This document shows positions 3,480 to 49,010 of a DNA stretch of 60,570 nucleotides, piece after piece (within the stretch, counting starts at the first letter, position 1; every line of letters starts with the position of its first letter). The notes under the pieces are model-generated. The model was given only the letters and a program-made list of their open reading frames with translations. It was not told the origin of the DNA and did not search any database. Origin of the DNA: Clostridiales bacterium. GTDB lineage: Bacteria; Bacillota; Clostridia; Lachnospirales; CAMVHY01. Made by a program: the position numbers and the translations under genes. The stretch is from positions 1 to 60,570 of the forward strand of contig JAISCN010000028.1 of NCBI GenBank assembly GCA_031265515.1, read 5' to 3'.

Positions 3480-4325
3480 ATGTTACAACAGACTGAATCT
3501 GACATGAGACGCGAAGATGAAATGATGGGAAGAGAACTTCTAACAGGAGGTATGAGACGTGAAGATGAAGTGATAAGAAGAGAAGCTATCAGAAGAGAAG
3601 GAGAACTTCCAGAAAGAGATATAGAGCGCGAAAATGAAATGATGGTAAGAGAGTTCAACGTTCAGCAAAGAGAACGGATAAGAATAGATCGGATGGTAAC
3701 GGATGACATATACAAAATTATTTTAGCATCTGTTTCTGCTTTTAGTTGTGCTTCTCTGAGTTGTGTTTTTCTCTTACCGCTTTATGCTGCTACGCCTGTG
3801 TCTGCACTTTACATGCTATCTGAAATTGAAAATTTAAAACTAAAGCATTCTAAAGAAGTTGAGAATTTAAGAAAGCAGTTAGAAGATGTAAGTTATGAAT
3901 TATCAGTGAAAAGTTTTCAATTAGCAGAAAAAAATTCTGAATTAGCAAAGAAAAGTTCTGAATCGGAAGAAAAAAGTTCTGAAATCAAATTTCTAAAAGA
4001 ATTTATTGAAGAAAAGGAGTCTTATCTTGCACAGTGCACAAGTGAGTTTCTTGAAAAAATGCGTTATCAAGAAATGACATTTTCAAGTTTATCTAGATCA
4101 TTTAGGTTTGAAAAGGATAAACATCGACGTGAAGTAAGTGAATTAAAACGAAAAATAGAAGAGTTAAAAAATCAAAGACCTCGTTCGATTGTCAGTGATG
4201 AAATATTTTCAATAGAACCACAAAAACGTTTTCCGTCTTCAGTTCTTGAAATGACAGCTCAAATTCGCAAACTTGGAATAATGGCGGAAGAACTAGAAAA
4301 TTCCATATCGGAAACTACTAGATAG
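3480..4325 (+). CDS. orphan membrane-associated coiled-coil protein: R/E-rich N-terminal repeats, an internal hydrophobic segment of about 37 aa, and a C-terminal coiled coil
   Basis: 281 aa with a strong RBS. Three imperfect tandem units of about 17 aa (MRREDEMMGRELL / MRREDEVIRREAI / IERENEMMVREF; nt ~3504-3668). Hydrophobic 'IYKIILASVSAFSCASLSCVFLLPLYAATPVSALYML' (nt 3708-3818). Heptad-like E/K/S/L-rich tail with an 'EK(N/S)SE' triplet repeat. I recognise no family. Confidence 0.75.
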   Translation: MLQQTESDMRREDEMMGRELLTGGMRREDEVIRREAIRREGELPERDIERENEMMVREFNVQQRERIRIDRMVTDDIYKIILASVSAFSCASLSCVFLLPLYAATPVSALYMLSEIENLKLKHSKEVENLRKQLEDVSYELSVKSFQLAEKNSELAKKSSESEEKSSEIKFLKEFIEEKESYLAQCTSEFLEKMRYQEMTFSSLSRSFRFEKDKHRREVSELKRKIEELKNQRPRSIVSDEIFSIEPQKRFPSSVLEMTAQIRKLGIMAEELENSISETTR

Positions 4326-4443: not shown

Positions 4444-5028
4444 ATGCAATTTGCTATGAATGTATTTCTTTTCCCAGGTGAGTATTGGTCTCTTTATGAA
4501 CGTTTGGTATCATTTTACGAATATTTATGTGGGTGTCCTTTACAAATACAACGTATCGAAGATCCTGCATTTAAGGAAAGGAATGAAGATCTTGAAGAAT
4601 TTAGATCAGAAGCTGAAGAAAGTTTAAAACTTCTTCAAGCAGGCGAAAGGTATGTTTTTGAGTGTAAAGCTATATATCCAAACGAAGAAGAGTGGAAAAA
4701 AGAATTTGAGTGTCATTTTTTCACTTTTTATGGACCTACACACTTATCCATTATCGATATGATACCACTTATAAAAAGAAATCTTGAAAATATAGGAAAT
4801 TCAGAAGTCAACACACTAATCCATCACCTTGAAAAAATTAGTTTCTCAGGGAATAAACGGAAAATGGAAATGTCGCTTAAAGTGATTTACGATCTTATCA
4901 AAGAGAAAAAAGATTTACAGCAAATGAAGGTTTCTTTAAGTGATGTAGTGAGATACGCATATAGTATTTCAGATAAAGAGTATGATGAAAGGATTAATGC
5001 AGATCGAGAAAGATATTTAGAAAAATAA
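4444..5028 (+). CDS. orphan soluble protein, co-directional partner of 3480-4325
   Basis: 194 aa with RBS AGAGGA upstream. E/K/C/F/Y-rich and not low-complexity. No TM segment and no recognisable motif. Confidence 0.65.
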   Translation: MQFAMNVFLFPGEYWSLYERLVSFYEYLCGCPLQIQRIEDPAFKERNEDLEEFRSEAEESLKLLQAGERYVFECKAIYPNEEEWKKEFECHFFTFYGPTHLSIIDMIPLIKRNLENIGNSEVNTLIHHLEKISFSGNKRKMEMSLKVIYDLIKEKKDLQQMKVSLSDVVRYAYSISDKEYDERINADRERYLEK

Positions 5029-8429: not shown

Positions 8430-9173
8430 TTAGATGACTAGTTTTTGCGGATGTTTTAGTTTATCTAAGCACAACTTAGTTATAGAACAAACCAAAAAAA
8501 ATAACGACAAACCAGCCGTGAAACTTAAACCTATAAATACAGAATTTAATCCAATTTTTAAAAGATTTTTAGCACTTAAGTAAATTAATGAACCACCGGT
8601 GCCTAACAAAGATACTAAAGAAATACAAACAAAAAATTTACACGGACTTTTACATGAATATTTGAATTTATCTAATTCTTGAACCCCTTCTGGTGTTTTT
8701 GAAATTATTGCTTCTTTTCCGCCGGACCGTTTAATAGTTTCTTTGAATTCTTCTACCTTGCGCTTAGTTCTGTATAAAGCACTTTCAAATAAAATTACGT
8801 TAGATTCTAACTTGATACAAAATGCTTTTATAGTTTCAAAGTATTCGTCATATGATGTTGGGAATGAATATTTCGGTATAATACTTCTTATCGTTGAAGT
8901 GGGGCCTTCTAATGTACGTATTACGTTATCGACAATGTATTTCAAATTCGTTTCATTATTTTTAATTGCTATTAATTCTTCAAACAAAGAAATTTGACCT
9001 GAAATAATTTCCTCGACGCTTATTAATAAATTAATTATTGGCTTTGTACTTGGTGATTGATTTTTTTGAAGTAATTTTATAAAATTTTCCACATTTTGTT
9101 TCATTGAAATAACATTTTCATGATGATTTTTTAGTCTTAAAACTGGGTTTAATTCCAATGCTGAGCATTGCAT
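8430..9173 (-). CDS. orphan protein with a C-terminal bilobed hydrophobic hairpin anchor (family member, motif class A)
   Basis: 247 aa, RBS AAAGGAG, no signal peptide. Helical N-domain. Anchor 'FFVCISLVSLLGTGGSLIYLSAKNLLKIGLNSVFIGLSFTAGLSLFFLVCSIT' (nt ~8481-8636) followed by the basic tail 'KLCLDKLKHPQKLVI'. Confidence 0.75.
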   Translation of the reverse strand: MQCSALELNPVLRLKNHHENVISMKQNVENFIKLLQKNQSPSTKPIINLLISVEEIISGQISLFEELIAIKNNETNLKYIVDNVIRTLEGPTSTIRSIIPKYSFPTSYDEYFETIKAFCIKLESNVILFESALYRTKRKVEEFKETIKRSGGKEAIISKTPEGVQELDKFKYSCKSPCKFFVCISLVSLLGTGGSLIYLSAKNLLKIGLNSVFIGLSFTAGLSLFFLVCSITKLCLDKLKHPQKLVI

Positions 9174-9249
9174 TTTTTAAATACTCCTTTTACAAATGAT
9201 TTTTTTTAAATGTTTCCGTATATTAAACATTATACTACAAATTACACAA

Positions 9250-9395
9250 TTATTAAAAGTTTTTATCTTACTATCGCTAGTATCAAAAACATCGCAAAAC
9301 AGAACGACGTTTTTTATCTCATTATCGTAAGCTCCAGCATTCATACATACAGATTCACCAATTGTTCTTGATATACTACAAAAATTCGAAGAATC
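9250..9395 (-). pseudogene. inverted, degenerate fragment of murB (internal segment, roughly MurB residues 125-172)
   Basis: The reverse complement reads '..SRTIGESVCMNAGAYDNEIKNVVLFCDVFDTSDSKIKTFNN'. MurB at 9995-10140 reads 'GTVGGSVCMNAGAYDSEMKNVVFSCDIFDTNDNEIKIFNN'. Identity is roughly 80-85% nt by eye over about 120 nt. There is no start codon or upstream coding continuity. Confidence 0.8.
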
Positions 9396-9623
9396 ATTAA
9401 TAAAATTACTTGTTGATAAGAAAATATAAAAAGTTTCTCAAATATTTAACTGATATTTTTACGGATGGCGCTAATTTTGAAAAAATTAATTTTTAACTAT
9501 TTGTCATCGTAAAAGATAACTAAATCTAGATATTAATTAATTTATATTTTTAAAATCAAAATAAAATATTTTTGCTTAGATATTTTTTGCAACGATTTAA
9601 GATAAATTGTAAAGAGGTGTTTT

Positions 9624-10544
9624 TTGATAATCAGCGACAAATTAAAAATTTATTTATTAAATAAAATTAAATCAAAAATTTTGTTTGATGAACCCATGAG
9701 AAATCATACCACTATTAGAGTTGGTGGTTCATGCGCTATGTTCTTTGAGCCAAATATTATAATAGAATTATTAGAAATTATAAAATTTCTTAATGAAAAA
9801 AAAATAAAGTTTTATGTTATAGGAAATGGATCAAATCTATTAGTCGATGACCTAGGTTTTGATGGTGCAATAATAAAAATAAATAAAAATTTTGAAAAAA
9901 ATAATATCGAAATCAAAAATGAGACAATAATTTGTAGTGCAGGTATTTTACTACCTAAGATTTCTAAAATTGCTTATGAAAATAATCTATCAGGTTTTGA
10001 ATTTGCTTGTGGTATACCAGGAACAGTTGGCGGATCTGTATGTATGAACGCCGGAGCTTACGATAGTGAAATGAAAAACGTTGTTTTTTCTTGCGATATT
10101 TTTGATACTAACGATAACGAGATAAAGATTTTTAATAATAAAGAATTAAATTTTGATTACCGAAGTAGCATAATAAGCGAAAAATATATTATCTTATGCG
10201 CTAAGTTTAAATTATTTTTTAAGAATAATAAAGAAGAAATCAAAAAAACAATGACAGATTTTAATAATAAGCGTAAAAATAAACAACCTATTGAATTTCC
10301 AAGTGCTGGCAGTATTTTTAAAAGACCTAAGGGATTTTATGTTGGAAAATTAATTCAAGACGCTGGTTTAGCAGGATTTACTATTGGCGGTGCACAAATA
10401 TCTAAAAAACATTGTGGATTTATGATTAATATAGGCAATGCTACTGCTCAAAATTTTTTAGATTTGATAGAGCTTACTAAGAAAATCATATCAAATAGAT
10501 TTGGCGTGAAATTACAAACAGAAATTAAGTATTTAAAAAAATAA
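9624..10544 (+). CDS. murB: UDP-N-acetylenolpyruvoylglucosamine reductase
   Basis: 306 aa with TTG start after AAGAGGTG. 'TTIRVGG', 'GNGSNLL' (FAD-binding domain) and 'PSAGSIFKRP' are present. Confidence 0.92.
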   Translation: MIISDKLKIYLLNKIKSKILFDEPMRNHTTIRVGGSCAMFFEPNIIIELLEIIKFLNEKKIKFYVIGNGSNLLVDDLGFDGAIIKINKNFEKNNIEIKNETIICSAGILLPKISKIAYENNLSGFEFACGIPGTVGGSVCMNAGAYDSEMKNVVFSCDIFDTNDNEIKIFNNKELNFDYRSSIISEKYIILCAKFKLFFKNNKEEIKKTMTDFNNKRKNKQPIEFPSAGSIFKRPKGFYVGKLIQDAGLAGFTIGGAQISKKHCGFMINIGNATAQNFLDLIELTKKIISNRFGVKLQTEIKYLKK

Positions 10545-10721
10545 TAATTAATTAGATAACAATAGCGCTATTTTATCTGTTTATTTAATAATATAAAAAT
10601 AAATATTTATTATTTTAAATTAAATATTTATTTTTGTTTTTTGTTTTTATCGATAAAAATAATATCTTGAGTTAAAATAAAATTGGTGTTAGTGACTAAA
10701 TCATGGAGATTTTGTTTTTTT

Positions 10722-11675
10722 ATGAGTCATGAGAAACGCTTGATTTTATTAAATTGCAACTCAAATATAAAATTAGCAAATGATATTGCGTTGGCACTAA
10801 ATTTAAATTTAACATCATCAAAAGTTTTGAGATTTAGCGATGGAGAAATAAACGTAGTAATAGAAGAAACAGTACGAGACGCAGATGTTTTTATTATACA
10901 ATCAACAAGTCCGCCAGTTAATGATAATTTAATGGAATTATTAATAATGTCAGACGCAGTAAAACGTGCATCAGCGTCATCAATCAATGCAGTTATTCCG
11001 TATTTTGGTTACGCTAGACAAGATAGAAAAACTCGAGCACGTGATCCAATTAGCGCTAAATTAGTTTCTGATATAATAACGTGCGCAGGAGCAAATAGAA
11101 TTTTGACAATGGACTTACACTGTGAACAAATACAAGGTTTTTTTGATATTCCAGTGGATAATTTATCTGGTGCACCAATTTTTGTAAACTATTTTAAAAA
11201 TAAATTTCAAAAAGATTTTAAAAATATAACGATTGTTTCGCCAGATTTTGGAAGTGTAACTCGAGCAAGATTTTTTGCTAATAAATTAAACATGCCGTTA
11301 GCTATTATTGACAAACGTAGAAGTCGAGCAAATATGTCTGAGATATTAAACGTAATTGGGTGTGTAAAGAATAGAATTATTATAATGTTAGATGACATGA
11401 TTGATACTGCTGGAACTATTACAAATGCTGCAAATGAACTAAAGAGAAGAGGCGCTATTAAAATTTGTGTATGTTGCACTCACGCTTTATTATCAGGAGA
11501 AGCGATCAATAAAATAAATAACTCAGCAATAGACGAATTGGTTGCACTTGACACAATTTTTATTCCTGAGAACAAAAAGTTTTCAAAATTAAAGATTATT
11601 TCTGTGGCGAATATATTTGCTACAGCGATAAAACACGTTCACCAAGGATTATCTGTTTCTGGACTCTTTGGCTAA
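10722..11675 (+). CDS. prs: ribose-phosphate pyrophosphokinase
   Basis: 'YFGYARQDRK', 'DLHCEQIQGFF', 'DDMIDTAGT' (PRPP loop). I place the start at ATG 10722 (MSHEKRLILL..., 317 aa, typical Prs length) rather than the track's TTG at 10683. Confidence 0.9.
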   Translation: MSHEKRLILLNCNSNIKLANDIALALNLNLTSSKVLRFSDGEINVVIEETVRDADVFIIQSTSPPVNDNLMELLIMSDAVKRASASSINAVIPYFGYARQDRKTRARDPISAKLVSDIITCAGANRILTMDLHCEQIQGFFDIPVDNLSGAPIFVNYFKNKFQKDFKNITIVSPDFGSVTRARFFANKLNMPLAIIDKRRSRANMSEILNVIGCVKNRIIIMLDDMIDTAGTITNAANELKRRGAIKICVCCTHALLSGEAINKINNSAIDELVALDTIFIPENKKFSKLKIISVANIFATAIKHVHQGLSVSGLFG

Positions 11676-11847
11676 TATTTTTTAAAAAAGAAAAAAACAC
11701 AAAATTTGTTTAGATAGATATATAAAAGAGATATCTCAAATATTTTTTTTGAGCGATAAAACGCGTTCACCAAGGATTATCTGTTTCTGGACTCTTTGGC
11801 TAATATTTTCTAAAAAAGAAAAAGCACAAAATTTGTTTAGATAGATA
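11625..11847 (+). repeat. tandem duplication of the prs 3' end plus its downstream flank (copy 1 at 11625-11720, copy 2 at 11753-11847)
   Basis: 'gcgataaaacacgttcaccaaggattatctgtttctggactctttggctaatatttt..aaaatttgtttagatagata' recurs 128 nt downstream with only a few substitutions and a 1-nt indel. Copy 2 carries the last ~17 prs codons plus the stop but has no start. Confidence 0.9.
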
Positions 11848-11967
11848 GAAATTCTTCAAACATTTTTTTATTCGTGTAGCAAATAATCTATGTCCGAATA
11901 TTTTTTATTTAGGAGATATGATTTTTTGCTTTAAAAAATTTATTTAATTTGGAGGATTTTATATCTT

Positions 11968-12885
11968 ATGAATAGTTTTGATCTAAATAATTTTAGTTCA
12001 ACCAATAATTTCGAGAGTGCTGTCAACGTTTCGAACGTAGCTTCTTCGGATAATATAAATAGCGAAAGCGTTGTTGAATCTTATCGCAGAGTTGTGAAAG
12101 AGCCCGTTATATCTTTTAAAATTTATGATTGCTGTCGTTCAAAAGATTGTTTAACATCAAAAGAAATAGGACCGGCTCGCACTTCATATAACGCTGATCA
12201 AGCTGGAGAAGTAATTCAGCCGCCAACAAATGCGGCTACCGTTTCTCTAGATCAATTGAAAATTAAAAAAATCATTATATTAAGTAAGACACCAAATAGT
12301 TTTAAAAATGGATATTGGGATATAGATTTAAGATATGTTTTTGGTTATAATTTAATTTTTCGTGATGCCGCAGGTACTCAAATATCATCGCCGATTGCTT
12401 CAAATAGTATATATAATAAAAAGTTAACTTTATTTGGTTCGACCGGAACTGAATTAGTTTTATCTACAGATTTATTTAGCAGTAGCAACCAAGGAACAAA
12501 TATTGTTAATGGATCACCGTTTGTATTAGTAGAAGCTAAATCAATAGCATTAGACGCTCAATTGAAATTTTCTTCAAAAACCTCGAGAGATACTGTTGAT
12601 GCTCCTCTTGAAGCTAATCACGTTGATGTAACTTTAGGATTATTTTCTATAATAAAATTATATCGATTAGTAGATTTAGAAGTTCAATCAACTGGTTTCG
12701 TAATTCCTAGAAAATGTCCTGCTAACCCATCGTATAAACCATGCGAATTTTTTGAAAAATTAAATTTTCCAATGGATATTTTTGCACCGCCACAAAAAAA
12801 AGAATTTAATTCGCAAATTTCTGGAAGTATAAAATCGAATTTAGATGCAACGTCAGCTTTAAATGATGATTGTGGTTGTAATTAA
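11968..12885 (+). CDS. hypothetical protein with Cys motifs; not recognised
   Basis: 305 aa. Strong RBS (GGAGGA, 11 nt before the ATG) and a downstream terminator. S/T/N/A/V-rich and K-poor. 'YDCCRSKDCL', 'KCPANPSYKPCEFF', C-terminal 'DDCGCN'. No signal peptide or TM segment. Confidence 0.7.
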   Translation: MNSFDLNNFSSTNNFESAVNVSNVASSDNINSESVVESYRRVVKEPVISFKIYDCCRSKDCLTSKEIGPARTSYNADQAGEVIQPPTNAATVSLDQLKIKKIIILSKTPNSFKNGYWDIDLRYVFGYNLIFRDAAGTQISSPIASNSIYNKKLTLFGSTGTELVLSTDLFSSSNQGTNIVNGSPFVLVEAKSIALDAQLKFSSKTSRDTVDAPLEANHVDVTLGLFSIIKLYRLVDLEVQSTGFVIPRKCPANPSYKPCEFFEKLNFPMDIFAPPQKKEFNSQISGSIKSNLDATSALNDDCGCN

Positions 12886-12913
12886 TAAGGCATAAAAAAA
12901 AATTTTTTGATAA

Positions 12914-12950
12914 AAATATCGCTGAGAGAAAAATCGAGGCGATATTTTTT
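12914..12950 (+). terminator. rho-independent terminator after 11968-12885
   Basis: Stem aaatatcgc (12914-12922) pairs with gcgatattt (12939-12947). A T-run follows. Confidence 0.5.
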
Positions 12951-13703
12951 GTCATGTCATAGAAAAAAATCTTGTTCACAAAATAAAATTTTAAGTTACG
13001 ACAAAACTTCTGTATTGAATCAAGAACAAAATTATAATTCAAATACATGTAATGAATGTGTTTATTCTTTATCTGGAGAATGTAGAATTAACAATTCAAA
13101 AATTACTTAAATAATTTAATTTTAAATGCAAGCAGTGCAAAATACATTTTTAAGATTTTCAGAAAAATTAGGACTTTATTCTTCAAGGTTAACGAATTAT
13201 TTAGAAATGTTGAGAAAAGCTATAATCTTGGCTGAAGAATACTTGACAGGAGTTAATAAATTTATTCAAATACATGCTTAATCCATAAATAAAAAATAAA
13301 AATGATTTATTTTGTTGTTAACGAATCATGTTAACGACATTTAAGATGTTTGATATTTAACGTGTAGTTTTTAAAAAAATGGTATTATAGTTTTTGTAGA
13401 TAGATTTAATGTCAGATAAATTTTTAACAATAAACGTATTAAATTAGTATTTTTTTGTATTTATATAAAGCCTTAAATTTACAGAAGATTTGTTGTAAAT
13501 AAATATTGTTTGTGTATATTAAAAGTTTTTATACTTGTGTTATGCTTGTTAATCTATATGTTATTGATAAAATTGTTCGTAAAAGATGAGAAAAGAATAA
13601 AGAAAGACATTAAAATGATTTAGCAAAAATTCAGACAATATCAAAGAAGTATTGCGATGTAAACTTTAAATTACAATTCATATTTTTTTACTTTTGGAGA
13701 AGT

Positions 13704-16244
13704 ATGAGTAGCAAAAATAAAACTATAAAAAAACTTTCTCGAAATGAGATTTTAAAATTAATAAAAAGAAAAAAAAAAATAAAAATATTTTTTTGGGGTT
13801 TATTTTTATTTTTTTTATTAACGTTATTGTGTTTGGTTCTGGGAATTTATAATGTCATTGGTGAATTTTATGATATAAAAAATATTAATTTACTTCCGAG
13901 TTCTTATAGTACTATAATCTATGAAAATAAAAATAATACAGAGATAGACAGATTAAATGGCGATGAGAATCGTGAATATATTACACTAGATAAAATTCCT
14001 ATTAATTTACAAAGAGCATTCATATCAATCGAGGACGAAAGATTTTATCAACACAATGGTATTGACTTGAAAGCGTTACTTCGTGCTGTTATAACAAAAA
14101 TTTTTAAGAAAAAAACCCAAGGTGCTAGCACGATAACTCAGCAAGTAATCAAAAATAACGTAACCAAAGTTTCTAAAAACAATATAAAAACTAAAATACA
14201 AGAACAATATTTAGCAATAAGACTAGAACAAGAATTGTCAGAAGAATTTAAAATTAAAAAAATATCAAAAGATTATATTCTGGAGATTTATTTAAATTCT
14301 ATTTATTTATATCATAATTTAAACGGTGTAAAAACAGCAGCCAATTTTTATTTTGACAAGAACGTCAGTGATTTAACGCTTGACGAATGTGCAGTTATAG
14401 CAGCGATAACAAAATCACCAACTTACTATGCACCTGATAAAAATCCTGAAAACAATAAAATCAGACGCAATTTGATTTTAAATAAGATGTATGAACTAAA
14501 TTATATAAATCAAGAAGAATTAGATAAAGCTCTAAACGAAGATAGTTATAAAAAAATCAAGAATTCTAAAAATGTAAATGCCGAAAAGTCTTATCATAGT
14601 TATTTCGTTGACAGGGTTATAAAAGATGTCGTGAATGATTTTGAAAAAAAATTAAAATATTCTCACAAAGATGCTATGAACTTAATATACAATGGCGGCT
14701 TAAAAATATACACGACGATAGATTTGGATATTCAAAAAATTTTGGATAAAAATTTTTGCAACGAAAAGTTCTTTCCCAAAAGTGATTTTGAGTTAGATAT
14801 ACAATATTTATTAACCGTAGAAAACAAAGATGGAGAAATTGAAAATCTTGAAAAAAATAAAGTTACAAAAAACGAAAAAGAAACCACGGATTTTATTAAT
14901 GACATAAAAAAAGAAATATCAAAAGATAATTATAAAATTCTATCAGAGAGAGTTATAAAAATAATCCAACCTCAAGCTGCAATGATTATAATTGATTATC
15001 ATAATGGTGAAGTTAAAGCTGTATATGGAAGCAGAGGAAAAAAAATAACAGACAGAGCTTTAAATCGCGCCACAGATTGTGAAAGACAACCCGGTTCAGT
15101 TTTTAAAATTTTGGCTTCTTACGCTCCGTCTATTGATTTAAAGAAAACAACAACATCTTCTATAATAATTGATGAACCCTATAAAACACCAGATGGTTAT
15201 GAACCAAAAAATTATTATAAAAACTATCGCGGACCATCTACGATACGAGATGGTATTCGTGATTCTATGAACATACTTGCAGTTAAGAATATGATTTCGA
15301 CTGGTGTTAATAGTTGCTTTAATTACTTACTTAAATTTGGTTTTACTACTCTCGTAGAAAGAAAAAAAGTTAATAATGTGATTTATTCAGATATTGTTGC
15401 TTCAACAGCACTCGGAGGTATCACACGCGGTGTAACTCAACTTGAATTAACAGCAGCATACGGCACTATAGCAAATCTTGGTATTTATAAAAAACCTATT
15501 TTTTATACTAAAGTTTTAGATCGAAAAAGCAACGTCTTATTAGAAAATAAAATCATTAATAAAAAAGTTTTATCTGCACAAACGAGTTATATATTAACAG
15601 ATTTGATGCAAGACGTAATAAAAAATGGCACAGGAAGAAAAGTAAAATTTGTTAATTCTAAGATTTCTATTGCTGGCAAAACTGGAACTACTAGCGATAC
15701 TAAAGATCTAAATTTTGTAGGATATACACCATATTATGTTGCAAGTATTTGGTTTGGTTTTGATCATCCTAAAAAGATGTATGCAAGTAATGGTTATCAT
15801 TTAATATTGTGGAGAGATACTATGGAGAAAATTCATTCTAATTTATTAATAAAAGATTTTGAAAAGCCAAATGGTTTAAAACAAATAAAAATTTGTAAAG
15901 AAACAGGCAAAATTGCTAGTGATTATTGCGATAGAGTAAGCAACGAGTATTTTATTTTTGGAACAGAACCAATAGAAATATGTGATGCCCACGAAAGTCA
16001 AAGTAAAAAAGAAAAAAACAATGAAAATATAGAAAAAAATAATAGTGATAAGCAAAATGCTAATCAAGATAATAATCAAGAAGAAGATGAAATAAAAGAT
16101 TTAGATTTAAATAAAAAATCAGACGAAGAAACAGCAAACGATAAAGATACAGAAGTTATTAACGATGATAGTCAAAATCAAAATCAAAAAAATAGTGATG
16201 ATAATTTCAATTCTAAAGAAAATATTAGTGTAAATAATAATTAA
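13704..16244 (+). CDS. class A penicillin-binding protein (PBP1A-type glycosyltransferase/transpeptidase) with a low-complexity N/D/Q/E tail
   Basis: 846 aa with an N-terminal TM segment. GT51 motifs 'EDERFYQHNGID', 'GASTITQQ'. Transpeptidase 'GSVFK' (SxxK) and 'KTGTT'. Confidence 0.92.
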   Translation: MSSKNKTIKKLSRNEILKLIKRKKKIKIFFWGLFLFFLLTLLCLVLGIYNVIGEFYDIKNINLLPSSYSTIIYENKNNTEIDRLNGDENREYITLDKIPINLQRAFISIEDERFYQHNGIDLKALLRAVITKIFKKKTQGASTITQQVIKNNVTKVSKNNIKTKIQEQYLAIRLEQELSEEFKIKKISKDYILEIYLNSIYLYHNLNGVKTAANFYFDKNVSDLTLDECAVIAAITKSPTYYAPDKNPENNKIRRNLILNKMYELNYINQEELDKALNEDSYKKIKNSKNVNAEKSYHSYFVDRVIKDVVNDFEKKLKYSHKDAMNLIYNGGLKIYTTIDLDIQKILDKNFCNEKFFPKSDFELDIQYLLTVENKDGEIENLEKNKVTKNEKETTDFINDIKKEISKDNYKILSERVIKIIQPQAAMIIIDYHNGEVKAVYGSRGKKITDRALNRATDCERQPGSVFKILASYAPSIDLKKTTTSSIIIDEPYKTPDGYEPKNYYKNYRGPSTIRDGIRDSMNILAVKNMISTGVNSCFNYLLKFGFTTLVERKKVNNVIYSDIVASTALGGITRGVTQLELTAAYGTIANLGIYKKPIFYTKVLDRKSNVLLENKIINKKVLSAQTSYILTDLMQDVIKNGTGRKVKFVNSKISIAGKTGTTSDTKDLNFVGYTPYYVASIWFGFDHPKKMYASNGYHLILWRDTMEKIHSNLLIKDFEKPNGLKQIKICKETGKIASDYCDRVSNEYFIFGTEPIEICDAHESQSKKEKNNENIEKNNSDKQNANQDNNQEEDEIKDLDLNKKSDEETANDKDTEVINDDSQNQNQKNSDDNFNSKENISVNNN

Positions 16245-16297
16245 AAAAAATAATGTGATGTTTTTTAGATTTAGATCAAAGTTTTAAAAAAAATCAT

Positions 16298-17551
16298 CTA
16301 ATTTTTAGTTTTACATTTATAAGATTTTCTAAAACATTTATTGTGAACAATAAAAGCAGTTATTGCGCACAAAAATAAAAAAAGAAAACTTGCGCCTGTA
16401 ATTAATGCTGTAAAATTTAGATAGTTAATACTATATTTTAATTTTTCAATTGTTGCTAAAATTATTATAGTGCTTCCTCCGATCACAGTTGCTAAAGATG
16501 ATAAAAGTATTATTACTTTATCTTTTCTTGATATTTTTCTTTGCTCTTTTAATGTTCTCGTTTCTAATTTTGTTTTTGAATTTGTAATTTCCGTATGTAG
16601 AAATGCTGATTCTGATGTTCTGTCTTCAATATCTTTTTCCGAGTTTCTTTCCTCATATATAACTTCTTCATTCTCTATATTAAGATTTTCTGATTCGTTT
16701 AATCTGGATATCCTAGTACTATCAACTAGCATTTTTCGATTTAACAATTTAAATATTTTAAATAATCTTTGTAATTGAGTTTCTGTACGTTTAACAGGAC
16801 TTACTGTTAAGAATCCTTCTGGATCTTGTATATTAAAAAGTAAACTTTCCATTTCGAGATCTAATGTCAGAACATTAATTTGCAAAGGAGATAATAGCTC
16901 TACTATATTTGTAAATATATCCTCGTTATCTTCGATTTCATCAAATAATGTTTGGAATAAAGAACACGTATCTTGAATACTCAATGTACAAAAACTAAGG
17001 TTAGCTAACAGATAAGGTCTGCTGTAATCGCGATTAGATATAACGAAAATTTCTTTAAACTTATCTGCATTAAAATTTATTTCTGTTCTTGCTAAATATG
17101 TTTTAATTGAACTTAACTTATCGGACTCACATAAACTATAAAAATTAGTTAAACTATAAAAATCAGTAAATACATCCACGCATGATTTAAACAATGTATA
17201 TCGACGATCAAAATCACCATCGTTTCTCATAAAGCTTGCATCGTAAGCCATTCTATAAAGAATTATAGAAGCATTTGCAACGCCGTATAAAACTAAAGTA
17301 AGAAAAATTAATATAGACTCGTTCGTTATTCCAACATTATTTATGAGATTACTTTTAATTAGTTCTTTACATGGTAACCTGAATTCGATTCCGGATTCGT
17401 TTTGCCTGCCAAATAAATTTATTATAGTATCAAGTTCAGGATTGGATTCTAATTTCGATTGTTGCAAAACAAAATTAGCTATATCTACGACATTATCACT
17501 TAAAAAAACGTTTATTAATCTCTGATGAATAATTAGGATATCGCCTTCCAT
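16298..17551 (-). CDS. orphan protein with a C-terminal bilobed hydrophobic hairpin anchor (family member, motif class A)
   Basis: 417 aa, no signal peptide. Cys/Phe/Asp-rich globular N-domain, then an acidic/Ser linker. Anchor 'VIILLSSLATVIGGSTIIILATIEKLKYSINYLNFTALITGASFLFLFLCAITAFIV' (nt ~16346-16519). Basic tail 'HNKCFRKSYKCKTKN'. Confidence 0.75.
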   Translation of the reverse strand: MEGDILIIHQRLINVFLSDNVVDIANFVLQQSKLESNPELDTIINLFGRQNESGIEFRLPCKELIKSNLINNVGITNESILIFLTLVLYGVANASIILYRMAYDASFMRNDGDFDRRYTLFKSCVDVFTDFYSLTNFYSLCESDKLSSIKTYLARTEINFNADKFKEIFVISNRDYSRPYLLANLSFCTLSIQDTCSLFQTLFDEIEDNEDIFTNIVELLSPLQINVLTLDLEMESLLFNIQDPEGFLTVSPVKRTETQLQRLFKIFKLLNRKMLVDSTRISRLNESENLNIENEEVIYEERNSEKDIEDRTSESAFLHTEITNSKTKLETRTLKEQRKISRKDKVIILLSSLATVIGGSTIIILATIEKLKYSINYLNFTALITGASFLFLFLCAITAFIVHNKCFRKSYKCKTKN

Positions 17552-17799: not shown

Positions 17800-18384
17800 G
17801 TGACTTATTTAAGATTTTTTCATGCTTCGATAAATTGCCCGAAAATAGATTTTTATATTAATAAAATATTAATAGAAAAAAACTATGATTATAAACAAAT
17901 GAGTGAATATTTTTCCGGTCATTCTGGAATTTATAATCTAGAAATAAAATCCTCTAATGATAATAAAGTTTTATTAAACAAAGAAATTAATCTAAAAGAA
18001 AATTATATATATACAGCCGCTGTTACGGGATTACTAAAAAATATTGATATAAAATTAATTCAAGATAATATAAATAAAATTAATAGCGACAATAAAAATT
18101 CAGAAATTAGATTTATAAATCTATCACCGAGTTTAAATTCTGCTGAAATAAATTTAAACGGAAATGACATAGCAAAAATTAATTTTAATAATCAAAGTGA
18201 TTATTTTAGGATCAAGCCTGAAAAACACTCTTTGTCACTAAAAGAAAAAGAAGCGATTTTGAAAAATAAAAATATAAATTTAGACGGTGGAAAAACTTAC
18301 TCTAGTTATGTTTTAGGTGTAAATAATTTAACAAATTCTCTAGATATAGTTACACATCTAGAAGGAAAAACCTTCTTAGCATAA
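17800..18384 (+). CDS. DUF4397-domain protein
   Basis: 194 aa with GTG start after AGGAG. 'LRFFHASINCPKIDFYIN' and the second repeat 'IRFINLSPSLNSAEINLNG' resemble the (V/I)RFxHxSPxxPxVD repeat of DUF4397. Confidence 0.6.
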   Translation: MTYLRFFHASINCPKIDFYINKILIEKNYDYKQMSEYFSGHSGIYNLEIKSSNDNKVLLNKEINLKENYIYTAAVTGLLKNIDIKLIQDNINKINSDNKNSEIRFINLSPSLNSAEINLNGNDIAKINFNNQSDYFRIKPEKHSLSLKEKEAILKNKNINLDGGKTYSSYVLGVNNLTNSLDIVTHLEGKTFLA

Positions 18385-27011: not shown

Positions 27012-29003
27012 ATGATAGAAAATTTTTTAGATTTAGCTCGTGGAGATAAAATTATCCACGAAAAGTATGGTGTTGGAGTTTATCGCGGTATAAAAAAAAT
27101 GAATATAAATGGTTGTTTTAAAGACTATGTAAAAATCGAATATGCTGATGGAGGTATGATTTTTTTACAAACATCTCAGATTGACTGTATTCAAAAATAT
27201 ATCGGAATCGAAAACGTTAAATTAAATAAACTCGGAAGCAATGATTGGATAAAAACGAAAACTAAAGCGAGACAAAATATTAGAAAAATAGCTTTTGATT
27301 TAGTTAAATTATATGCAAGTAGAGAAAAGATCAACGGTTTTAAATTTAACAAAGATAACGATAATCAAGAAAAATTTGAAAACGAATTTGAATATATAGA
27401 GACTAATGATCAACTTAACGCAATAAAAGATATAAAACAAGATATGGAATCTTCGCGAGCAATGGATAGATTAATATGTGGTGACGTAGGTTATGGAAAA
27501 ACAGAAGTGGCAATGCGAGCAGCTTTTAAATGCGTTCAAGATAAAAAACAAGTTGCATATTTGTCACCAACTACAATATTGACACAGCAGCATTATAATA
27601 ATTTTTTAGAGAGATTTAAAAATTTCGATGTAAACATAGAAATGTTGTCAAGATTTAGAAATACAGTACAACAAAAAAAAATAATGGAAAAAATAAAAAT
27701 TGGTGAAATAGATATAGTTATTGGCACTCATAAATTATTATCAAAAGATATCATATTTAAAGACTTAGGATTAATAATAGTTGATGAAGAACAAAGATTC
27801 GGCGTTAATCATAAAGAGAAATTAAAATCTCTCTATGAAAATGTTGATGTATTAACTCTGAGTGCAACACCTATACCTAGAACTTTAAACATAAGTTTAA
27901 ATAATATGAGAGATATTAGTATCCTAAGGGAACCGCCACATAATAAATTGCCAGTTAGAACTTTTGTTATCGAACACGACTTTTTAGAAATAAAAAAAAT
28001 TATTTCGAGAGAATTAGATCGCCTCGGCCAGGTTTATTATTTATGCAATAAAATAAAAAATATTGCTAATATTGCTTTTAAAATACAAGAGATGATTCCA
28101 GGAGCTGTTGTGAGATTTGCACATGGACGATTATCTGAAATAGAATTAGAAAATATTATGCGCGATTTTATAAATAAAAAAATAGATGTTTTGGTTTGTA
28201 CAACGATAATAGAAGCAGGATTAGACATACATAATGCAAATACAATAATAGTACAAGATGCTGATATTATGGGTCTAGCTCAATTATATCAATTGCGTGG
28301 ACGTGTAGGAAGATCTAACAAACTTGCTTATGCTTATTTTACATATGATAAAAATAAAATTTTAAATCCTGACGCAGAAAAAAGACTTAAAACTATAATA
28401 GAATTTGTGGAATTTGGTTCTGGATTTAAAATTGCCATGAAAGATTTAGAAATACGTGGAGCTGGAAATTTATTAGGAGCGGAACAAAGCGGAAATGTTG
28501 GAGCAATTGGGTATGATTTGTATTGCAAACTATTAAAAAAAGAGATTAAAACTATTTCTAATGAAAAATATTTTGAAGAAGCAAATATTGATTTAAACGT
28601 AAATGCCTTTATATCAGATGAATATGCTAATACTATCGATGAAAAATTAAAACTCTATAAAAATATTTCGGGCATAAAATCTCAAGACGATTTTGATAGC
28701 TTAAAAAAAGAATTAATAAAAAAATACAAAAATATAGATAGAAATCTTATTAATTTATTTTACATGTATTTGATAAAGTCTGTCGCTCAAAAGATAGGAA
28801 TTAAATCTATAATACAAAAAGATAATATCGTGAAAATTTTGTTTTATAAAAACGCAGATATAAGTTTGGATAATTTGCTGGAAGTAGCAAACAAAGATAA
28901 AAATATTATTTTTATTTTAAATCCAGAACCTAATTTAAAAATAACTATTGATAATAATGACGATATCTGTGAAAAAATAACAGACATCGTAATTTCGTTA
29001 TAA
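27012..29003 (+). CDS. mfd: transcription-repair coupling factor Mfd, N-terminally truncated form (RNAP-interaction domain, translocase and D7 only)
   Basis: 663 aa. It starts directly with the CarD/TRCF RID 'GDKIIHEKYGVGVYRGI'. Helicase motifs 'GDVGYGKTEVA', 'DEEQRFG', 'LSATPIPRT', 'QLRGRVGRS'. The UvrB-homology D1-D3 region (about 450 aa in full-length Mfd) is absent, and the 230 nt upstream are non-coding. Confidence 0.85.
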   Translation: MIENFLDLARGDKIIHEKYGVGVYRGIKKMNINGCFKDYVKIEYADGGMIFLQTSQIDCIQKYIGIENVKLNKLGSNDWIKTKTKARQNIRKIAFDLVKLYASREKINGFKFNKDNDNQEKFENEFEYIETNDQLNAIKDIKQDMESSRAMDRLICGDVGYGKTEVAMRAAFKCVQDKKQVAYLSPTTILTQQHYNNFLERFKNFDVNIEMLSRFRNTVQQKKIMEKIKIGEIDIVIGTHKLLSKDIIFKDLGLIIVDEEQRFGVNHKEKLKSLYENVDVLTLSATPIPRTLNISLNNMRDISILREPPHNKLPVRTFVIEHDFLEIKKIISRELDRLGQVYYLCNKIKNIANIAFKIQEMIPGAVVRFAHGRLSEIELENIMRDFINKKIDVLVCTTIIEAGLDIHNANTIIVQDADIMGLAQLYQLRGRVGRSNKLAYAYFTYDKNKILNPDAEKRLKTIIEFVEFGSGFKIAMKDLEIRGAGNLLGAEQSGNVGAIGYDLYCKLLKKEIKTISNEKYFEEANIDLNVNAFISDEYANTIDEKLKLYKNISGIKSQDDFDSLKKELIKKYKNIDRNLINLFYMYLIKSVAQKIGIKSIIQKDNIVKILFYKNADISLDNLLEVANKDKNIIFILNPEPNLKITIDNNDDICEKITDIVISL

Positions 29004-29101: not shown

Positions 29102-30085
29102 TTAAAAAAAACTTTTACTCAAAATAAATATAGATAGAACACAAGTAATTGCCGTAAAAATATAAAAAAACGATACTATCTTAGTCTCACGCCAACCCGA
29201 TAATTCAAAATGATGGTGCAGTGGCGTCATCTTAAAAATTCTTTTGCCATGCGTTATTTTAAAAAATAATACCTGAATTATAACAGACAAAGTTTCCGTA
29301 ACGAAGACTATTCCTGAGATTGCTAAAAAAATTTCTAAGTTTAATATTATTGATGCTGACGCTAAAAATGCACCTAATGCTAGTGATCCGGCATCACCCA
29401 TAAAAACTTTTGCAGGATAAAAATTAAATAATAAAAAACTTAATAAACTGCCTGTTAATGCGCTTGTCATCAAATAGATCGGAGAATTTAATTTTAAAGC
29501 TGCGTATGTAAAGAATATTGATAATAAAACAGTTATACCTGCTGCTAAACCATCTAAACCATCTGTTAAATTAACTGCATTTGAAGATCCGATTAATATA
29601 AAAATTATTATTGGCACAAAAAAATATTTTGAGTTCCAAAAAAAATTTGTAAATGGAATTTTGATTAATCTTAAATTTTTTTCTGGTAGGAGCAAATTAG
29701 ATAAAATTATAAAAATTACAGAAAATATTATTTGCATTAAAAGTTTTTGATAAGCACGAAGACCAAGAGATCTCTTTTTTGTAATTTTGATAAAATCATC
29801 AAGAAAGCCTATCAATCCAAAACTAAGAGTAGTTAATAAAATTAAAATATTTTCTGGATTTTTTCGCAAAAAAAATATTGTTGATAAAAAAAGACTTAAT
29901 AAAAATATCAAGCCACCCATTGTGGGGGTATTTGTTTTTTTCAAGTGAGATTTGGGGCCACAATCTCTTATGGATTGACCAAATTTTAAAATTCGTAAAT
30001 ATTTTATAAATAATGGTGATATAATTAAATTTATTATAAAACTCAAAATTGTAATATAAATTAGATTTATCCTATGAATGGCCAA
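29102..30085 (-). CDS. mraY: phospho-N-acetylmuramoyl-pentapeptide transferase
   Basis: 327 aa. 'PTMGG', 'NAVNLTDGLDGLA', 'GDAGSLALG', 'PLHHHFE'. Confidence 0.93.
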   Translation of the reverse strand: MAIHRINLIYITILSFIINLIISPLFIKYLRILKFGQSIRDCGPKSHLKKTNTPTMGGLIFLLSLFLSTIFFLRKNPENILILLTTLSFGLIGFLDDFIKITKKRSLGLRAYQKLLMQIIFSVIFIILSNLLLPEKNLRLIKIPFTNFFWNSKYFFVPIIIFILIGSSNAVNLTDGLDGLAAGITVLLSIFFTYAALKLNSPIYLMTSALTGSLLSFLLFNFYPAKVFMGDAGSLALGAFLASASIILNLEIFLAISGIVFVTETLSVIIQVLFFKITHGKRIFKMTPLHHHFELSGWRETKIVSFFYIFTAITCVLSIFILSKSFF

Positions 30086-32115: not shown

Positions 32116-33000
32116 TTAGGTGTTCATTTCTGGATCTTTAAAAATAGTTTTTTTTGTGATAAGTAATGATGCTGCTAAAAAAACACATACACAAATAGGT
32201 ATAATAATCGGTATTGAAAATTTTGACATAATAAAATACCAAGATAAACTTGATATTAATCCCGTAATGATCAAAACTAAAATTGATATATCAATAACCA
32301 ATCTTTTATCAATTGAATTTTTCTTCTTTGGATTTTCTTTTTTTTGTTGAGATAAACAGCGCGAGTCTTTATATAAGTTTGGTATAGAATAACCATACAT
32401 ATTCTTAAAATTATTATAAATCAAACGAATTGAATAATTTTCAGGTAAATATGTGATGTCATCTGTTTTCGGATTTTTAATTTGTTCTTGAGCATCATTA
32501 AGATTGAAATATATTTGGAGCATCGATAATTCGCTTTTGGAAATGTGACTATAGAACATCAAATTAATCTGATAATTCAATGCATCTAACCAACCTAACA
32601 TACTATAAGTACACATTTGTGTTTTAGCACTGAGTTCGTCAATGATATCACAATTAGTATTGATATACGATGCTAATTGTAGTATAAAAATTAAAAAACA
32701 ATAATAATGTGCGATTTCTTCTTTAATTTTATCATCAAGATCTGGTGTTGTAGCGTTTATTTGCGAAATTACGTATTCTATATCAGGCTTTATGTGATAA
32801 ATAATAAGAGAATCAGATTTAGCTTTTTCCGAATCTATAAAACTATTTATTTTTATTTGATTTTTTTCGAAAAAGTCACATAACTCTGATATAAATTCAA
32901 GGCAATTATATTCTTTGTGAACATTAAAAAAAAGATTTAACCGACTTTCTTGAATATAATTTTGCAAATTTGTTTTTAAAATAACGATCACCTCTTTCAA
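32116..33000 (-). CDS. orphan protein with a C-terminal bilobed hydrophobic hairpin anchor (family member by architecture)
   Basis: 294 aa, no signal peptide. Cys/Tyr/Phe-rich N-domain. A basic stretch 'QQKKENPKKKNSIDKR' is followed by 'LVIDISILVLIITGLISSLSWYFIMSKFSIPIIIPICVCVFLAASLLI' (nt ~32158-32304). Tail 'TKKTIFKDPEMNT'. TTG start is uncertain. Confidence 0.7.
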   Translation of the reverse strand: MKEVIVILKTNLQNYIQESRLNLFFNVHKEYNCLEFISELCDFFEKNQIKINSFIDSEKAKSDSLIIYHIKPDIEYVISQINATTPDLDDKIKEEIAHYYCFLIFILQLASYINTNCDIIDELSAKTQMCTYSMLGWLDALNYQINLMFYSHISKSELSMLQIYFNLNDAQEQIKNPKTDDITYLPENYSIRLIYNNFKNMYGYSIPNLYKDSRCLSQQKKENPKKKNSIDKRLVIDISILVLIITGLISSLSWYFIMSKFSIPIIIPICVCVFLAASLLITKKTIFKDPEMNT

Positions 33001-33210: not shown

Positions 33211-34548
33211 TTGCGAGGTTTAAATCTAAAAAATAAAAACATTTTAATATACGGGTTAGGCGTTTCTGGCAAAGCAGCATTTGATTTAATTAAATCACAA
33301 AACTCGAATATTTTTTTATATGACAATAAGATCGATAAGTTTAAAAATATAAAAATCATAAAAAAAATAGATTTTTTAATTAGTTTATTAAATTCATTAG
33401 ATTTGATTATCGTAAGTCCAGGAATTAGTTTAGATAACGTTTTTTTTAAAACAGCAAAAGAAAAAAAAATTAAAATATGGTCTGAAATAGAATTAGCATA
33501 CAATATGTGCGAGAATAATTTTATTGCTATCACAGGAACAAACGGAAAAACAACCACAACAAGTGTAGTTGGCAAAATAATAAAAAATATAGATATAAAT
33601 TCTCAGATTGCAGGAAATATAGGCGTTGCACTTTCAAAAAGTATTTTAAATATAAAAAACAAAAAAAGTTTTATTGTCGCTGAGATAAGCAGTTTTCAAC
33701 TTGAAAGCATAGAAAAATTTAAACCAAAAATAAGTGCAATATTAAATATAACACCAGATCATTTAGATAGACATAAAACTTTTGAAAATTATGCAAGAGA
33801 AAAAAAAAAAGTATTTAAAAATCAAGATAAAAATGATTTTTTAGTAATCAACTATGATGATTTTGAGTGTAGAAAAATTTACGATAATCACGAAAGCAAA
33901 TCAAAGATTGTTTTTTTCAGCACAAAAAAAGTAATCAATGATGGGGTTTATTTTTTAGATAATTATATCTATTTTAAAGAGAAAAAAATTTTATCATGCG
34001 ATGAAATAAATTTACTAGGAATGCATAATATTTCTAACATATGCGCTGCTATAGCTATTTGCTTTTGCGCCAATATAGATATAAAAATTATTTGTAATGC
34101 TATTAAAAAATTTAAAAATATAGAACATAGATTAGAATTTGTTAGAAAAATAAATAAAATTAAATTTTATAACGACTCTAAAGCGACGAATATAGATTCA
34201 GCTTGTACAGCTCTTGAAGCTTTCAGAGATAAAAATATAATTTTAATTGGTGGAGGATATGATAAACATGTAGATTTTTATGATTGGATTAATAAAATTA
34301 AAGAAATAAAAGTTAAGTACTTAATATTAATAGGTGAAACAAAAAATAAAATAAAAAATCAATGTGAAGAATTAAATTTTAAAAATTATTTACTTTGTGA
34401 AAGTTTTGAACAAGCTATCAAAAAATCTTTTGATTTAGCAATTAGCAAGGATTGTGTTTTATTGTCTCCAGCATGTGCGAGCTGGGATATGTTTGATAAT
34501 TATGAGCAACGTGGAAATATTTTTAAAGATTTAGTAAATAAATTTTAA
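33211..34548 (+). CDS. murD: UDP-N-acetylmuramoylalanine--D-glutamate ligase
   Basis: 445 aa with TTG start. 'GLGVSG', 'ITGTNGKTTT', 'NITPDHLDRH', 'NDSKATN'. Confidence 0.93.
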   Translation: MRGLNLKNKNILIYGLGVSGKAAFDLIKSQNSNIFLYDNKIDKFKNIKIIKKIDFLISLLNSLDLIIVSPGISLDNVFFKTAKEKKIKIWSEIELAYNMCENNFIAITGTNGKTTTTSVVGKIIKNIDINSQIAGNIGVALSKSILNIKNKKSFIVAEISSFQLESIEKFKPKISAILNITPDHLDRHKTFENYAREKKKVFKNQDKNDFLVINYDDFECRKIYDNHESKSKIVFFSTKKVINDGVYFLDNYIYFKEKKILSCDEINLLGMHNISNICAAIAICFCANIDIKIICNAIKKFKNIEHRLEFVRKINKIKFYNDSKATNIDSACTALEAFRDKNIILIGGGYDKHVDFYDWINKIKEIKVKYLILIGETKNKIKNQCEELNFKNYLLCESFEQAIKKSFDLAISKDCVLLSPACASWDMFDNYEQRGNIFKDLVNKF

Positions 34549-35945: not shown

Positions 35946-36869
35946 ATGTCAGAAATTGATTTGAATAATATAAATTACAAAGTCGAAAATGTTCTACATC
36001 ATCTGCAACCTACCACTTGTAACACAAATGATAGTTCTATGTGTTATTTAAAACTCGGCAATTCAGGTTTTTATGTTGTTAGCAAAGCTCTTTCTGAACC
36101 TCATGAAATAGATAGCAAACAAGAATCACTTGCAAGACAATTGTGTAACGAAATTAGTAGTGTTTTTGAAGAAAATTTTCCAAAAAAAGTAGAAACTTTT
36201 AGAAAAATTGTAGATTTTTATATTGATACACCTAATGAAAATTTGGTATATGAAGATAAGAATATGAAACGTATTGTCGATGCTTATAGTTTTTCTGTTT
36301 TTTTGACTCTGACATTCTTTAGAAATGAACTTAAAACAGATATCGTGGATATTGAGAATTTACGAGCATCATTCTTAATTACAGAGCATTATTTGTATTA
36401 TTCGAGTCTTAAAGATAGTCTCGAAATTGAAGAAAGAAAAGCATTGATACGCAACGATTCAGTTTTTGGTGATTATCTTTGCTTACAGAAATTTAATAAA
36501 TTAAAAAATGAACAACCAAATATTCAAACTCTTATCCAATGGTTGGATATTTCGTTGCTTTCGGGTGTTTTTATTTTTTTAGTATGTGAGTTTCTTCTGG
36601 CGTCCCTGCTATCCTTTAATATAAATTATGGTATAACATATCCAATTTTTGTTACAGACCGTTTTGGCTATGCGTGTTTCACAACGCTAGGTCAGCTTTT
36701 GCCACTTATTACCGCTATTAGTTTCGTATTGGTCGCAGCGATTGTAGGAATTGTAAATTTTATTGTTGATAAAAGATTACATGGCATGACTGAACAACAA
36801 CTTCTCAAAGCGACTAGCCAATCATTCGAAGAATCTTATGGAATTGGTGTTACATGTACATTAGGATAA
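35946..36869 (+). CDS. orphan protein with a C-terminal two-span hydrophobic domain (family member by architecture)
   Basis: 307 aa with RBS GAAGAGG, no signal peptide. TM1 'ISLLSGVFIFLVCEFLLASLLSF' and TM2 'CFTTLGQLLPLITAISFVLVAAIVGIVNFIV' (nt ~36549-36767). Tail of about 33 aa. Confidence 0.7.
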   Translation: MSEIDLNNINYKVENVLHHLQPTTCNTNDSSMCYLKLGNSGFYVVSKALSEPHEIDSKQESLARQLCNEISSVFEENFPKKVETFRKIVDFYIDTPNENLVYEDKNMKRIVDAYSFSVFLTLTFFRNELKTDIVDIENLRASFLITEHYLYYSSLKDSLEIEERKALIRNDSVFGDYLCLQKFNKLKNEQPNIQTLIQWLDISLLSGVFIFLVCEFLLASLLSFNINYGITYPIFVTDRFGYACFTTLGQLLPLITAISFVLVAAIVGIVNFIVDKRLHGMTEQQLLKATSQSFEESYGIGVTCTLG

Positions 36870-36916: not shown

Positions 36917-37330
36917 CTAATATAAATAAAAAAATAAAAAAACCGAACCAACTATAATAAAAATATCTGCTAAATTAAAAACCGGAAATTTGACAAAACT
37001 AAGTTCTATGAAATCTATTATATAACCTCTAAACAATCTATCGAAAAGATTTCCCAAAATTCCCGAAATAATAACAGTTTCTATAGTTCTTAGTTTACTT
37101 TTTTTTTTGATGATATGATAACTTAAAAGAAATATCGCAGTTATACTTAGCAAAGATAAAAAAATTTTTTGTCCTTTAAAAAAACCAAAGGCCGCTCCGC
37201 TGTTCTCTACATAAGTCAAATTTATTAATCCAAAAGATATTTTTTTCGAGAATTTTAGAAATCTCAAAACAGTTTCTTTTGACAAAAAATCTATAGCAAA
37301 CAATAAAAATACAACACAAAAATATATCAT
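36917..37330 (-). CDS. lspA: lipoprotein signal peptidase (SPase II)
   Basis: 137 aa. 'NSGAAFG', 'GNLFDR', 'FNLADIFI'. The start overlaps the thrS stop (ATGA). Confidence 0.88.
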   Translation of the reverse strand: MIYFCVVFLLFAIDFLSKETVLRFLKFSKKISFGLINLTYVENSGAAFGFFKGQKIFLSLLSITAIFLLSYHIIKKKSKLRTIETVIISGILGNLFDRLFRGYIIDFIELSFVKFPVFNLADIFIIVGSVFLFFYLY

Positions 37331-42954: not shown

Positions 42955-42967
42955 TTTTTAAAAATTT

Positions 42968-43330: not shown

Positions 43331-43482
43331 ATTAAATTATATTAAACACATATCGAAAACCAAGATTTTAGCATATTTAATTTTTTATTCTGTTTTATTA
43401 AAAATTTAAATCACTAACATGTATATTTTTTTTGTATACAGGATTTTTTTGAGTCAAAAATCACTTTCGGGAGAGTGTTTTA

Positions 43483-46719: not shown

Positions 46720-48141
<1,422 letters not shown>

Positions 48142-48175
48142 TTAATCCTAAATAAAAAAATTAATATTAAAAAAA

Positions 48176-48943: not shown

Positions 48944-49010
48944 AAAATCATCACACTTTTTATTTATTTTTTAGCGTTCAACATAAACAAAATATTTTAT
49001 CTATATTTTT

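Follow-up and report, generated by a model that had tools for sequence, protein, structure and literature searches.

The ElaB/YqjD/YgaM group of Escherichia coli comprises C-tail-anchored proteins with a single transmembrane (TM) helix that form the conserved family DUF883, and IncA and the Legionella LegC-type SNARE-like proteins are membrane-tethered coiled-coil proteins of intracellular pathogens. The Inc proteins of Chlamydiae carry a bilobed domain of two helices of 15-32 amino acids (aa) joined by a loop of 3-22 aa, have hairpin turns in which Asn, Ser, Thr, Gly and Pro are overrepresented, and make up 4-10% of chlamydial proteomes (Dehoux et al. 2011, PMC3048545). Here we analyze orphan proteins with hydrophobic hairpins that are encoded on a 60,570-nucleotide contig of a Clostridiales bacterium (JAISCN010000028.1, GenBank assembly GCA_031265515.1), the whole of which is called the window below. 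Three of them, protein A (16298-17551, minus strand, 417 aa), protein B (51743-55192, minus strand, 1149 aa; 1145 aa in the database call) and protein C (8430-9173, minus strand, 247 aa), had been proposed in an earlier note on this DNA to share a C-terminal membrane anchor by common descent.

The window holds unusually many hairpin-anchored orphans, five to seven in number, with one of them (protein F) a doubtful member. Under a fixed rule, open reading frames (ORFs) counted when they encode 150 aa or more, have a single bilobed region that takes in all their hydrophobic uncharged runs, and carry this region beyond the first 40 residues. This layout is present in 5 of the 39 window ORFs, compared with 6 of 1668 ORFs in control loci (Fisher p = 2e-6, about 36-fold) and 1 of 210 ORFs in control loci below 33% GC. 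A 60 kb piece of housekeeping chromosome thus encodes several orphans that combine a soluble helical domain with a helical hairpin, and this enrichment is the fact that survives our tests; at present it is an architectural observation. We read the proteins as lineage-specific and hairpin-tethered, displaying variable helical or coiled-coil domains, possibly as scaffolds, on the cytoplasmic side of a membrane. A and C would have distantly related anchors, and the others independent ones or ones diverged past recognition. This is the account we favor, although we hold it tentatively and rate its chances at a little under even.

Proteins A, B and C exist as described in the earlier note, their quoted C-terminal strings are exact, and a bilobed hydrophobic region indeed ends each of them. 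All three lack a signal peptide, and their C-terminal lobe pairs are flanked by Lys/Arg-rich stretches. Orphan A consists of a helical N-terminal region and the C-terminal hairpin, with an additional hydrophobic helix at aa 79-99, and orphan C consists of a helical domain of ~170 aa and the hairpin. Protein B begins with an N-terminal domain of ~230-345 aa, continues as a coiled coil of ~700 aa and ends in the bilobed region; its gene lies within the co-directional housekeeping run alaS-degV-B-pdp-ffh. Single-sequence AlphaFold2 models of A and C are all-helical and of low confidence (predicted local distance difference test, pLDDT, of 39.1 and 47.5, respectively), with long helices placed over the lobes (H342-369 and H376-410 in A, H177-204 and H210-240 in C). 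Protein A also contains an in-frame 18-bp duplication (window 17132-17167), so that (D/N)FYSLT is encoded twice, and its gene adjoins one for a DUF4397 protein (17800-18384, plus strand; E = 2e-29 in a Pfam scan).

The remaining members differ in layout. Orphan D (32116-33000, minus strand, 294 aa) has a soluble N-terminal domain and a hairpin at aa 238-282 with a tight SKFS turn, and orphan E (35946-36869, plus strand, 307 aa) has a soluble N-terminal domain, lobes at aa 202-224 and 248-274 and a turn that starts with NINYG. Orphan G (3480-4325, plus strand, 281 aa) carries R/E-rich repeats, a 34-residue bilobed stretch (aa 80-113) and then a coiled coil. In-frame 21/42-bp tandem repeats (7/14 aa, heptad-like; window 3890-3983) occur in this coiled coil. 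The doubtful orphan F (59221-60126, minus strand, 301 aa) has a possible weak C-terminal hairpin (aa 246-268 and 283-301) and no segment above the hydrophobicity threshold. A soluble, E-rich orphan, H (4444-5028, plus strand), adjoins G. For proteins D, E, F and G, no similarity in sequence was detected, either to A, B and C or among themselves, and none of D to H matches Pfam, PADLOC or PHROGs. The orphans stand singly, dispersed among housekeeping genes, and are richer than those in Glu, Arg, Gln, Leu and Ser. Their GC content at third codon positions equals that of the housekeeping genes, which argues that they are native genes.

By hydropathy alone, the lengths of TM1, loop and TM2 are 23/11/23 residues in A, 20/6/29 in B, 22/9/22 in C, 21/4/20 in D and 23/23/27 in E. 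The A anchor (16346-16516, minus strand) comprises TM1 at aa 346-368, the loop EKLKYSINYLN at aa 369-379 and TM2 at aa 380-402, with basic flanks on both sides, and the C anchor (8478-8636, minus strand) comprises TM1 at aa 180-201, the loop KNLLKIGLN at aa 202-210 and TM2 at aa 211-232. In B (51788-51952, minus strand), lobe 1 (aa 1081-1100) is weakly hydrophobic and is followed by the turn SINIAN (aa 1101-1106) and lobe 2 (aa 1107-1135), all within an uncharged stretch of 57 residues. The orphan lobes are marginally hydrophobic, with a median of -0.96 compared with -1.53 for housekeeping TM helices (p = 0.11 by a Hessa-type sum). Cysteines are grouped at or beside the hairpin boundaries and are often Lys-flanked (16346-16516, 8478-8636 and 32155-32289), as in ...HNKCFRKSYKCK of A, KYSCKSPCKFFVC...ITKLCLDK of C and PICVCVF of D.

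These features suggest that A, B and C are each tethered to a membrane through a C-terminal helical hairpin of two marginally hydrophobic helices and a short turn. Because Lys and Arg flank both sides and the turns are poorly charged or short, both ends of the hairpin are predicted to be cytoplasmic. An N-in/C-in topology is the most likely one, and with it the N-terminal domain and the short basic tail would both face the cytoplasm. The small residues of the Gly-Gly-Ser (GGS) motif may provide helix packing or flexibility, and Asn, Ser and Gly may allow a tight turn.

The anchors were compared as segments of ~75-80 residues in four nulls or tests. These include a real-hairpin null of 232 two-helix hairpins, collected in the window and in 1.4 Mb of Bacillota loci elsewhere, and a segment-preserving null in which TM1, turn, TM2 and flanks were shuffled as separate blocks. 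The latter comes nearest to the composition-matched random TM segments named in the earlier note. The strongest similarity is that between A and C. In the whole-sequence shuffle the pair reaches z = 5.2-5.6 (p about 5e-4), and its score of 57 exceeds those of all 232 real TM hairpins (maximum 47). The alignment extends over 48 residues across TM1, turn and TM2 with a single 1-residue gap, and the segment lengths match. Among the 21 pairs of window hairpins, A-C is a clear outlier (z = 5.6), which makes a distant common origin of these two anchors plausible. Proteins A and C could well be distant paralogs with respect to their anchors only, on otherwise unrelated N-terminal domains. The N-terminal domains are unalignable, as the earlier note had indicated: the best of the 28 pairs among the eight orphans is B-C, with p = 0.003 uncorrected, and this similarity was discarded after correction.

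Protein B fits less well. In the whole-sequence shuffle A-B reaches z = 2.9-3.1 (p = 0.009-0.016), and the pair lies at p = 0.02-0.03 against real hairpins (2nd-3rd percentile) and at p = 0.08-0.09 in the segment-preserving null. Between B and C there is no similarity (p = 0.77 in the shuffle, 0.96 in the segment-preserving null), and the pair is indistinguishable from real hairpins. In leave-one-out tests with hidden Markov models built from AC, AB and BC and searched against a 3254-ORF database, the third protein never rose above noise: B is not in the top 12 of the AC profile, the AB profile misses C, and with the BC profile A appears at noise level (E = 1.8). A MAFFT alignment of the three anchors has only 3 invariant columns and no conserved stretch of 7-10 columns.

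The proposal of the earlier note was that copies of one ancestral module, running from GGS through a SIN/N turn to lobe 2, arose by duplication and were joined to unrelated N-terminal domains, and that the polar residues of the module form a specific oligomerization interface. Some observations are in its favor. Lobe 1 contains GGS in each of the three proteins, compared with 3 of 233 control hairpins, the pentapeptide IGGST is common to A and B with identical ATC GGA GGA codons, and no other of the 21 hairpin pairs scores as well as A-C and A-B. The regular expression that the earlier note gives for the motif, although built on these sequences, has 0 matches in 707,000 control residues; it matches A and B in the window, and not C. 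The weight of the first observation is limited by random draws of three hairpins, in which a tripeptide no more frequent than GGS was common to all in about 0.3-2% of trials, a figure uncorrected for choosing 3 of about 7 window hairpin proteins.

The register of the motifs speaks against the module. The earlier note had (I/T)GGS(T/L) opening lobe 1, which is true of B, where GGS (aa 1083-1085) lies at the N-edge of the lobe after 2 hydrophobic residues. In A (aa 358-360) and C (aa 193-195) it lies mid-helix, 12-13 residues into a helix of 22-23. The motif SINxxNx[ST]A[LI] does occur in two of the three proteins, A and B, and the lobe-2 motif likewise in two, A and C. The spacing of 12-14 residues from GGST to SIN comprises half a helix and a charged loop (EKLKY) in A, and uninterrupted helix in B. 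Because of this difference in depth, GGS and SIN are structurally non-equivalent in A and B, and equal spacing does not amount to equal structure. Furthermore, the Ser codons of the shared pentapeptide come from different families (AGC and TCG).

When 1.84 billion representatives were searched exhaustively with HMMER, a profile of the three anchors recovered A, B, C and a fish protocadherin, and no further member, although these databases may cover the rest of this genome only in part. The protocadherin match (E = 5e-5) is due to chance, as a thrice-repeated TM segment fits lobe 2. The motif is found in no other window ORF. Two outcomes had been named as contrary to common descent, E-values like those of matched TM segments and an absence of further copies; the E-values are near those of matched TM segments, and the searches turned up no further copies.

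Taken together, B-C shows no similarity under any null, A-B loses significance after correction for 21 pairs, and the leave-one-out profiles fail. Common descent is thus plausible for A and C, marginal for A and B and without a trace between B and C. A single shuffled module with three members was not demonstrated, the inclusion of B resting on the pentapeptide, and we consider it improbable. Nor is a specific oligomerization interface needed to account for the polar residues: hairpin turns are generically rich in Asn, Ser, Thr, Gly and Pro, and the amino-acid pool of this DNA (GC ~26%) is rich in Asn, Ile and Ser. Because Asn, Ser and Gly in turns are generic to helical hairpins, they provide no argument for descent. 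In our preferred reading, the motif residues would be generic hairpin solutions drawn from an AT-biased amino-acid pool rather than parts of one shuffled module, and the anchors of B, D, E and G would be alike in architecture only. A true shuffled module would have been a new membrane-targeting domain, usable to find cargo proteins, and our tests do not establish one.

One may go further and regard all anchors as independent, with every match, including A-C, produced by TM composition bias, the AT-rich amino-acid pool and post-hoc selection. We regard this as a doubtful but serious possibility. When the layout is kept in the shuffle, A-C drops to p = 0.012-0.017, which is not significant after 3-21 comparisons, and the rare tripeptides shared by random hairpins show that such coincidences occur. 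A similar bit score, about 12 bits, is reached when the A anchor is matched to TM1-TM2 of the human 5-HT2B receptor, and the protocadherin shows what profile E-value a TM segment can reach purely by chance. What independence leaves unexplained is that A-C outscores every real hairpin, that its Gumbel and shuffle p of about 5e-4 survives a 21-fold correction, and that its alignment is essentially ungapped with matching segment lengths.

The reading of hairpin-tethered proteins with distantly related A and C anchors itself faces several difficulties. Given p of about 0.015 under the layout-preserving null, the A-C pair could be convergent. The third hydrophobic helix of A (aa 79-99) could change its topology, and neither lobe 1 of B nor either lobe of F is hydrophobic enough to be called a TM helix with confidence. 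Orthologs of A, of C, of the B N-terminal domain and of the anchors were not found in the searched databases.

Among 5.8 billion clustered proteins, A and C retrieved only themselves and B (1-345) retrieved nothing. Proteins A and C have no significant matches in Pfam, NCBIfam, PADLOC, PHROGs and PDB sequences, and B has only sub-threshold coiled-coil matches in the curated libraries (SMC/Rad50, far below the cut-offs). A BLAST match between A and the 554-aa ORF at 37327-38991 (E = 7e-4) was judged to be chance, as that ORF encodes ThrRS. GTDB contained no loci related to that of A. JGI metagenomes queried with the neighboring PBP1A for syntenic orthologs gave a best identity of 34% and no relatives, and 80 inspected MetRS loci showed no synteny.

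Among the matches listed from GTDB species genomes, the best identities are 55% for MetRS and 71% for AtpD, so that a closer relative may exist; the best matches of both belong to Clostridia and Bacilli. None of 185,000 species genomes contained an exact match to half of the tRNA-Thr. The window proteins tested, AtpD and PBP1A included, are singletons at 90% identity among ~15 billion proteins, although all of them have entries in NCBI, IMG and Logan. The lineage is thus without a close sequenced relative among the searched databases. A second contig (L001, from Logan) is 100% identical to the window.

The host is a peptidoglycan-bearing bacterium of Bacillota type by its window genes, which encode RodA/FtsW, MurB, Prs, a class A penicillin-binding protein, MetRS, SecG, L19, TrkAH, Mfd, MraY, FolD, MurD, Gmk, LspA, ThrRS, MraW, FtsL, PepF, AtpD, AtpG, Ffh, a pyrimidine-nucleoside phosphorylase, DegV, AlaRS and CodY. 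Its genome looks reduced and rearranged, as judged at 27012-29003 (plus strand), 37327-38991 (minus), 46720-50324 (minus), 29102-30085 (minus), 33211-34548 (plus) and 42085-44274 (plus). Mfd is only 663 aa long and begins at the CarD/RID domain, and ThrRS (554 aa; 37327-38991, minus strand) is without the N-terminal TGS domain. AtpG has 233 aa, and atpG-atpD lies between a preceding ffh and a following pepF, with no atpA or atpC there. The dcw cluster is split: an M23 peptidase comes after mraW-ftsL, and mraY and murD each stand alone.

A direct repeat of ~69 bp (11652-11720 and 11780-11847, 96% identical) lies upstream of a CsxA-like ORF at 11968-12885. Contig L001 stops precisely at the repeat, which therefore looks like an assembly break point. 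The ORF (plus strand, 305 aa) has a weak precomputed match to CsxA (PF27077), recorded under the copy of this gene in L001, and gave nothing at E <= 1 in our own Pfam scan; the match is a faint hint of a spore-forming lineage. A promoter scan was uninformative in this AT-rich DNA (66 sites against 69.7 expected).

The repertoire invites the thought that the orphans are exported, Inc-like effectors that insert into a host-derived or foreign membrane and expose their coiled-coil domains. Proteins A to E fit the size definition of Inc lobes (PMC3048545), a pair of TM helices each 15-32 aa long and a loop below 30 aa, as read from hydropathy only. Their density in the window (~10% of genes) resembles the 4-10% of chlamydial proteomes, the soluble parts are rich in helices and coiled coils, the lobes are marginally hydrophobic, and the genome has the reduced and rearranged look described above. 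The host, however, is peptidoglycan-bearing and of Bacillota type (CodY, PBP1A, RodA, MurB/D, MraY). Scans of the window genes revealed no type III secretion genes and no other effector secretion system in the 60 kb, and no Pfam Inc family matched. Moreover, the hydrophobicity of the lobes does not differ significantly from that of the housekeeping TM helices (p = 0.11). We regard export as very unlikely. A bolder variant, which we also rate as quite improbable, is that a Bacillota lineage that is uncultured and seems genome-reduced independently evolved a large Inc-like repertoire of ~1 gene in 10 on a specialized membrane (host-derived, forespore or other internal), with the A/C anchor as an expanding sub-family.

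What keeps these comparisons of interest is that, to our knowledge, such dense hairpin-anchored, coiled-coil-rich repertoires are otherwise a hallmark of remodelers of foreign membranes, e.g., Chlamydiae. If such a repertoire is real in a Bacillota-type genome, it could point to an unrecognized membrane-organizing system or to a host-associated lifestyle.

Compared with known systems, the window proteins are like the ElaB/YqjD/YgaM group in their predicted cytoplasmic helical N-terminal domain, their lack of a signal peptide and the anchor at the extreme C-terminus. They are unlike it in being anchored by two helices in a hairpin, followed by a basic C-terminal tail, and in matching no family. 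Protein B recalls IncA and the LegC-type proteins in that it joins a TM hairpin to a very long coiled coil, whereas it is encoded among housekeeping genes in a Bacillota-type genome. The hydrophobic domain is N-proximal in most Incs, while the hairpin stands at the extreme C-terminus in A to F and near the N-terminus only in G, which thereby shares the usual Inc order. Incs are, furthermore, inclusion-membrane proteins specific to Chlamydiae that bear an N-terminal type III secretion signal, and the window proteins come from a Bacillota-like phylum. Without claiming membership, we suggest that the window proteins resemble chlamydial Incs in architecture: a bilobed domain of ~40-60 residues with two helices and a short turn rich in Asn, Ser and Gly, flanks that are both predicted to lie on one side of the membrane, soluble domains made of helices or coiled coils, and many mutually unalignable members scattered over the genome at high gene density.

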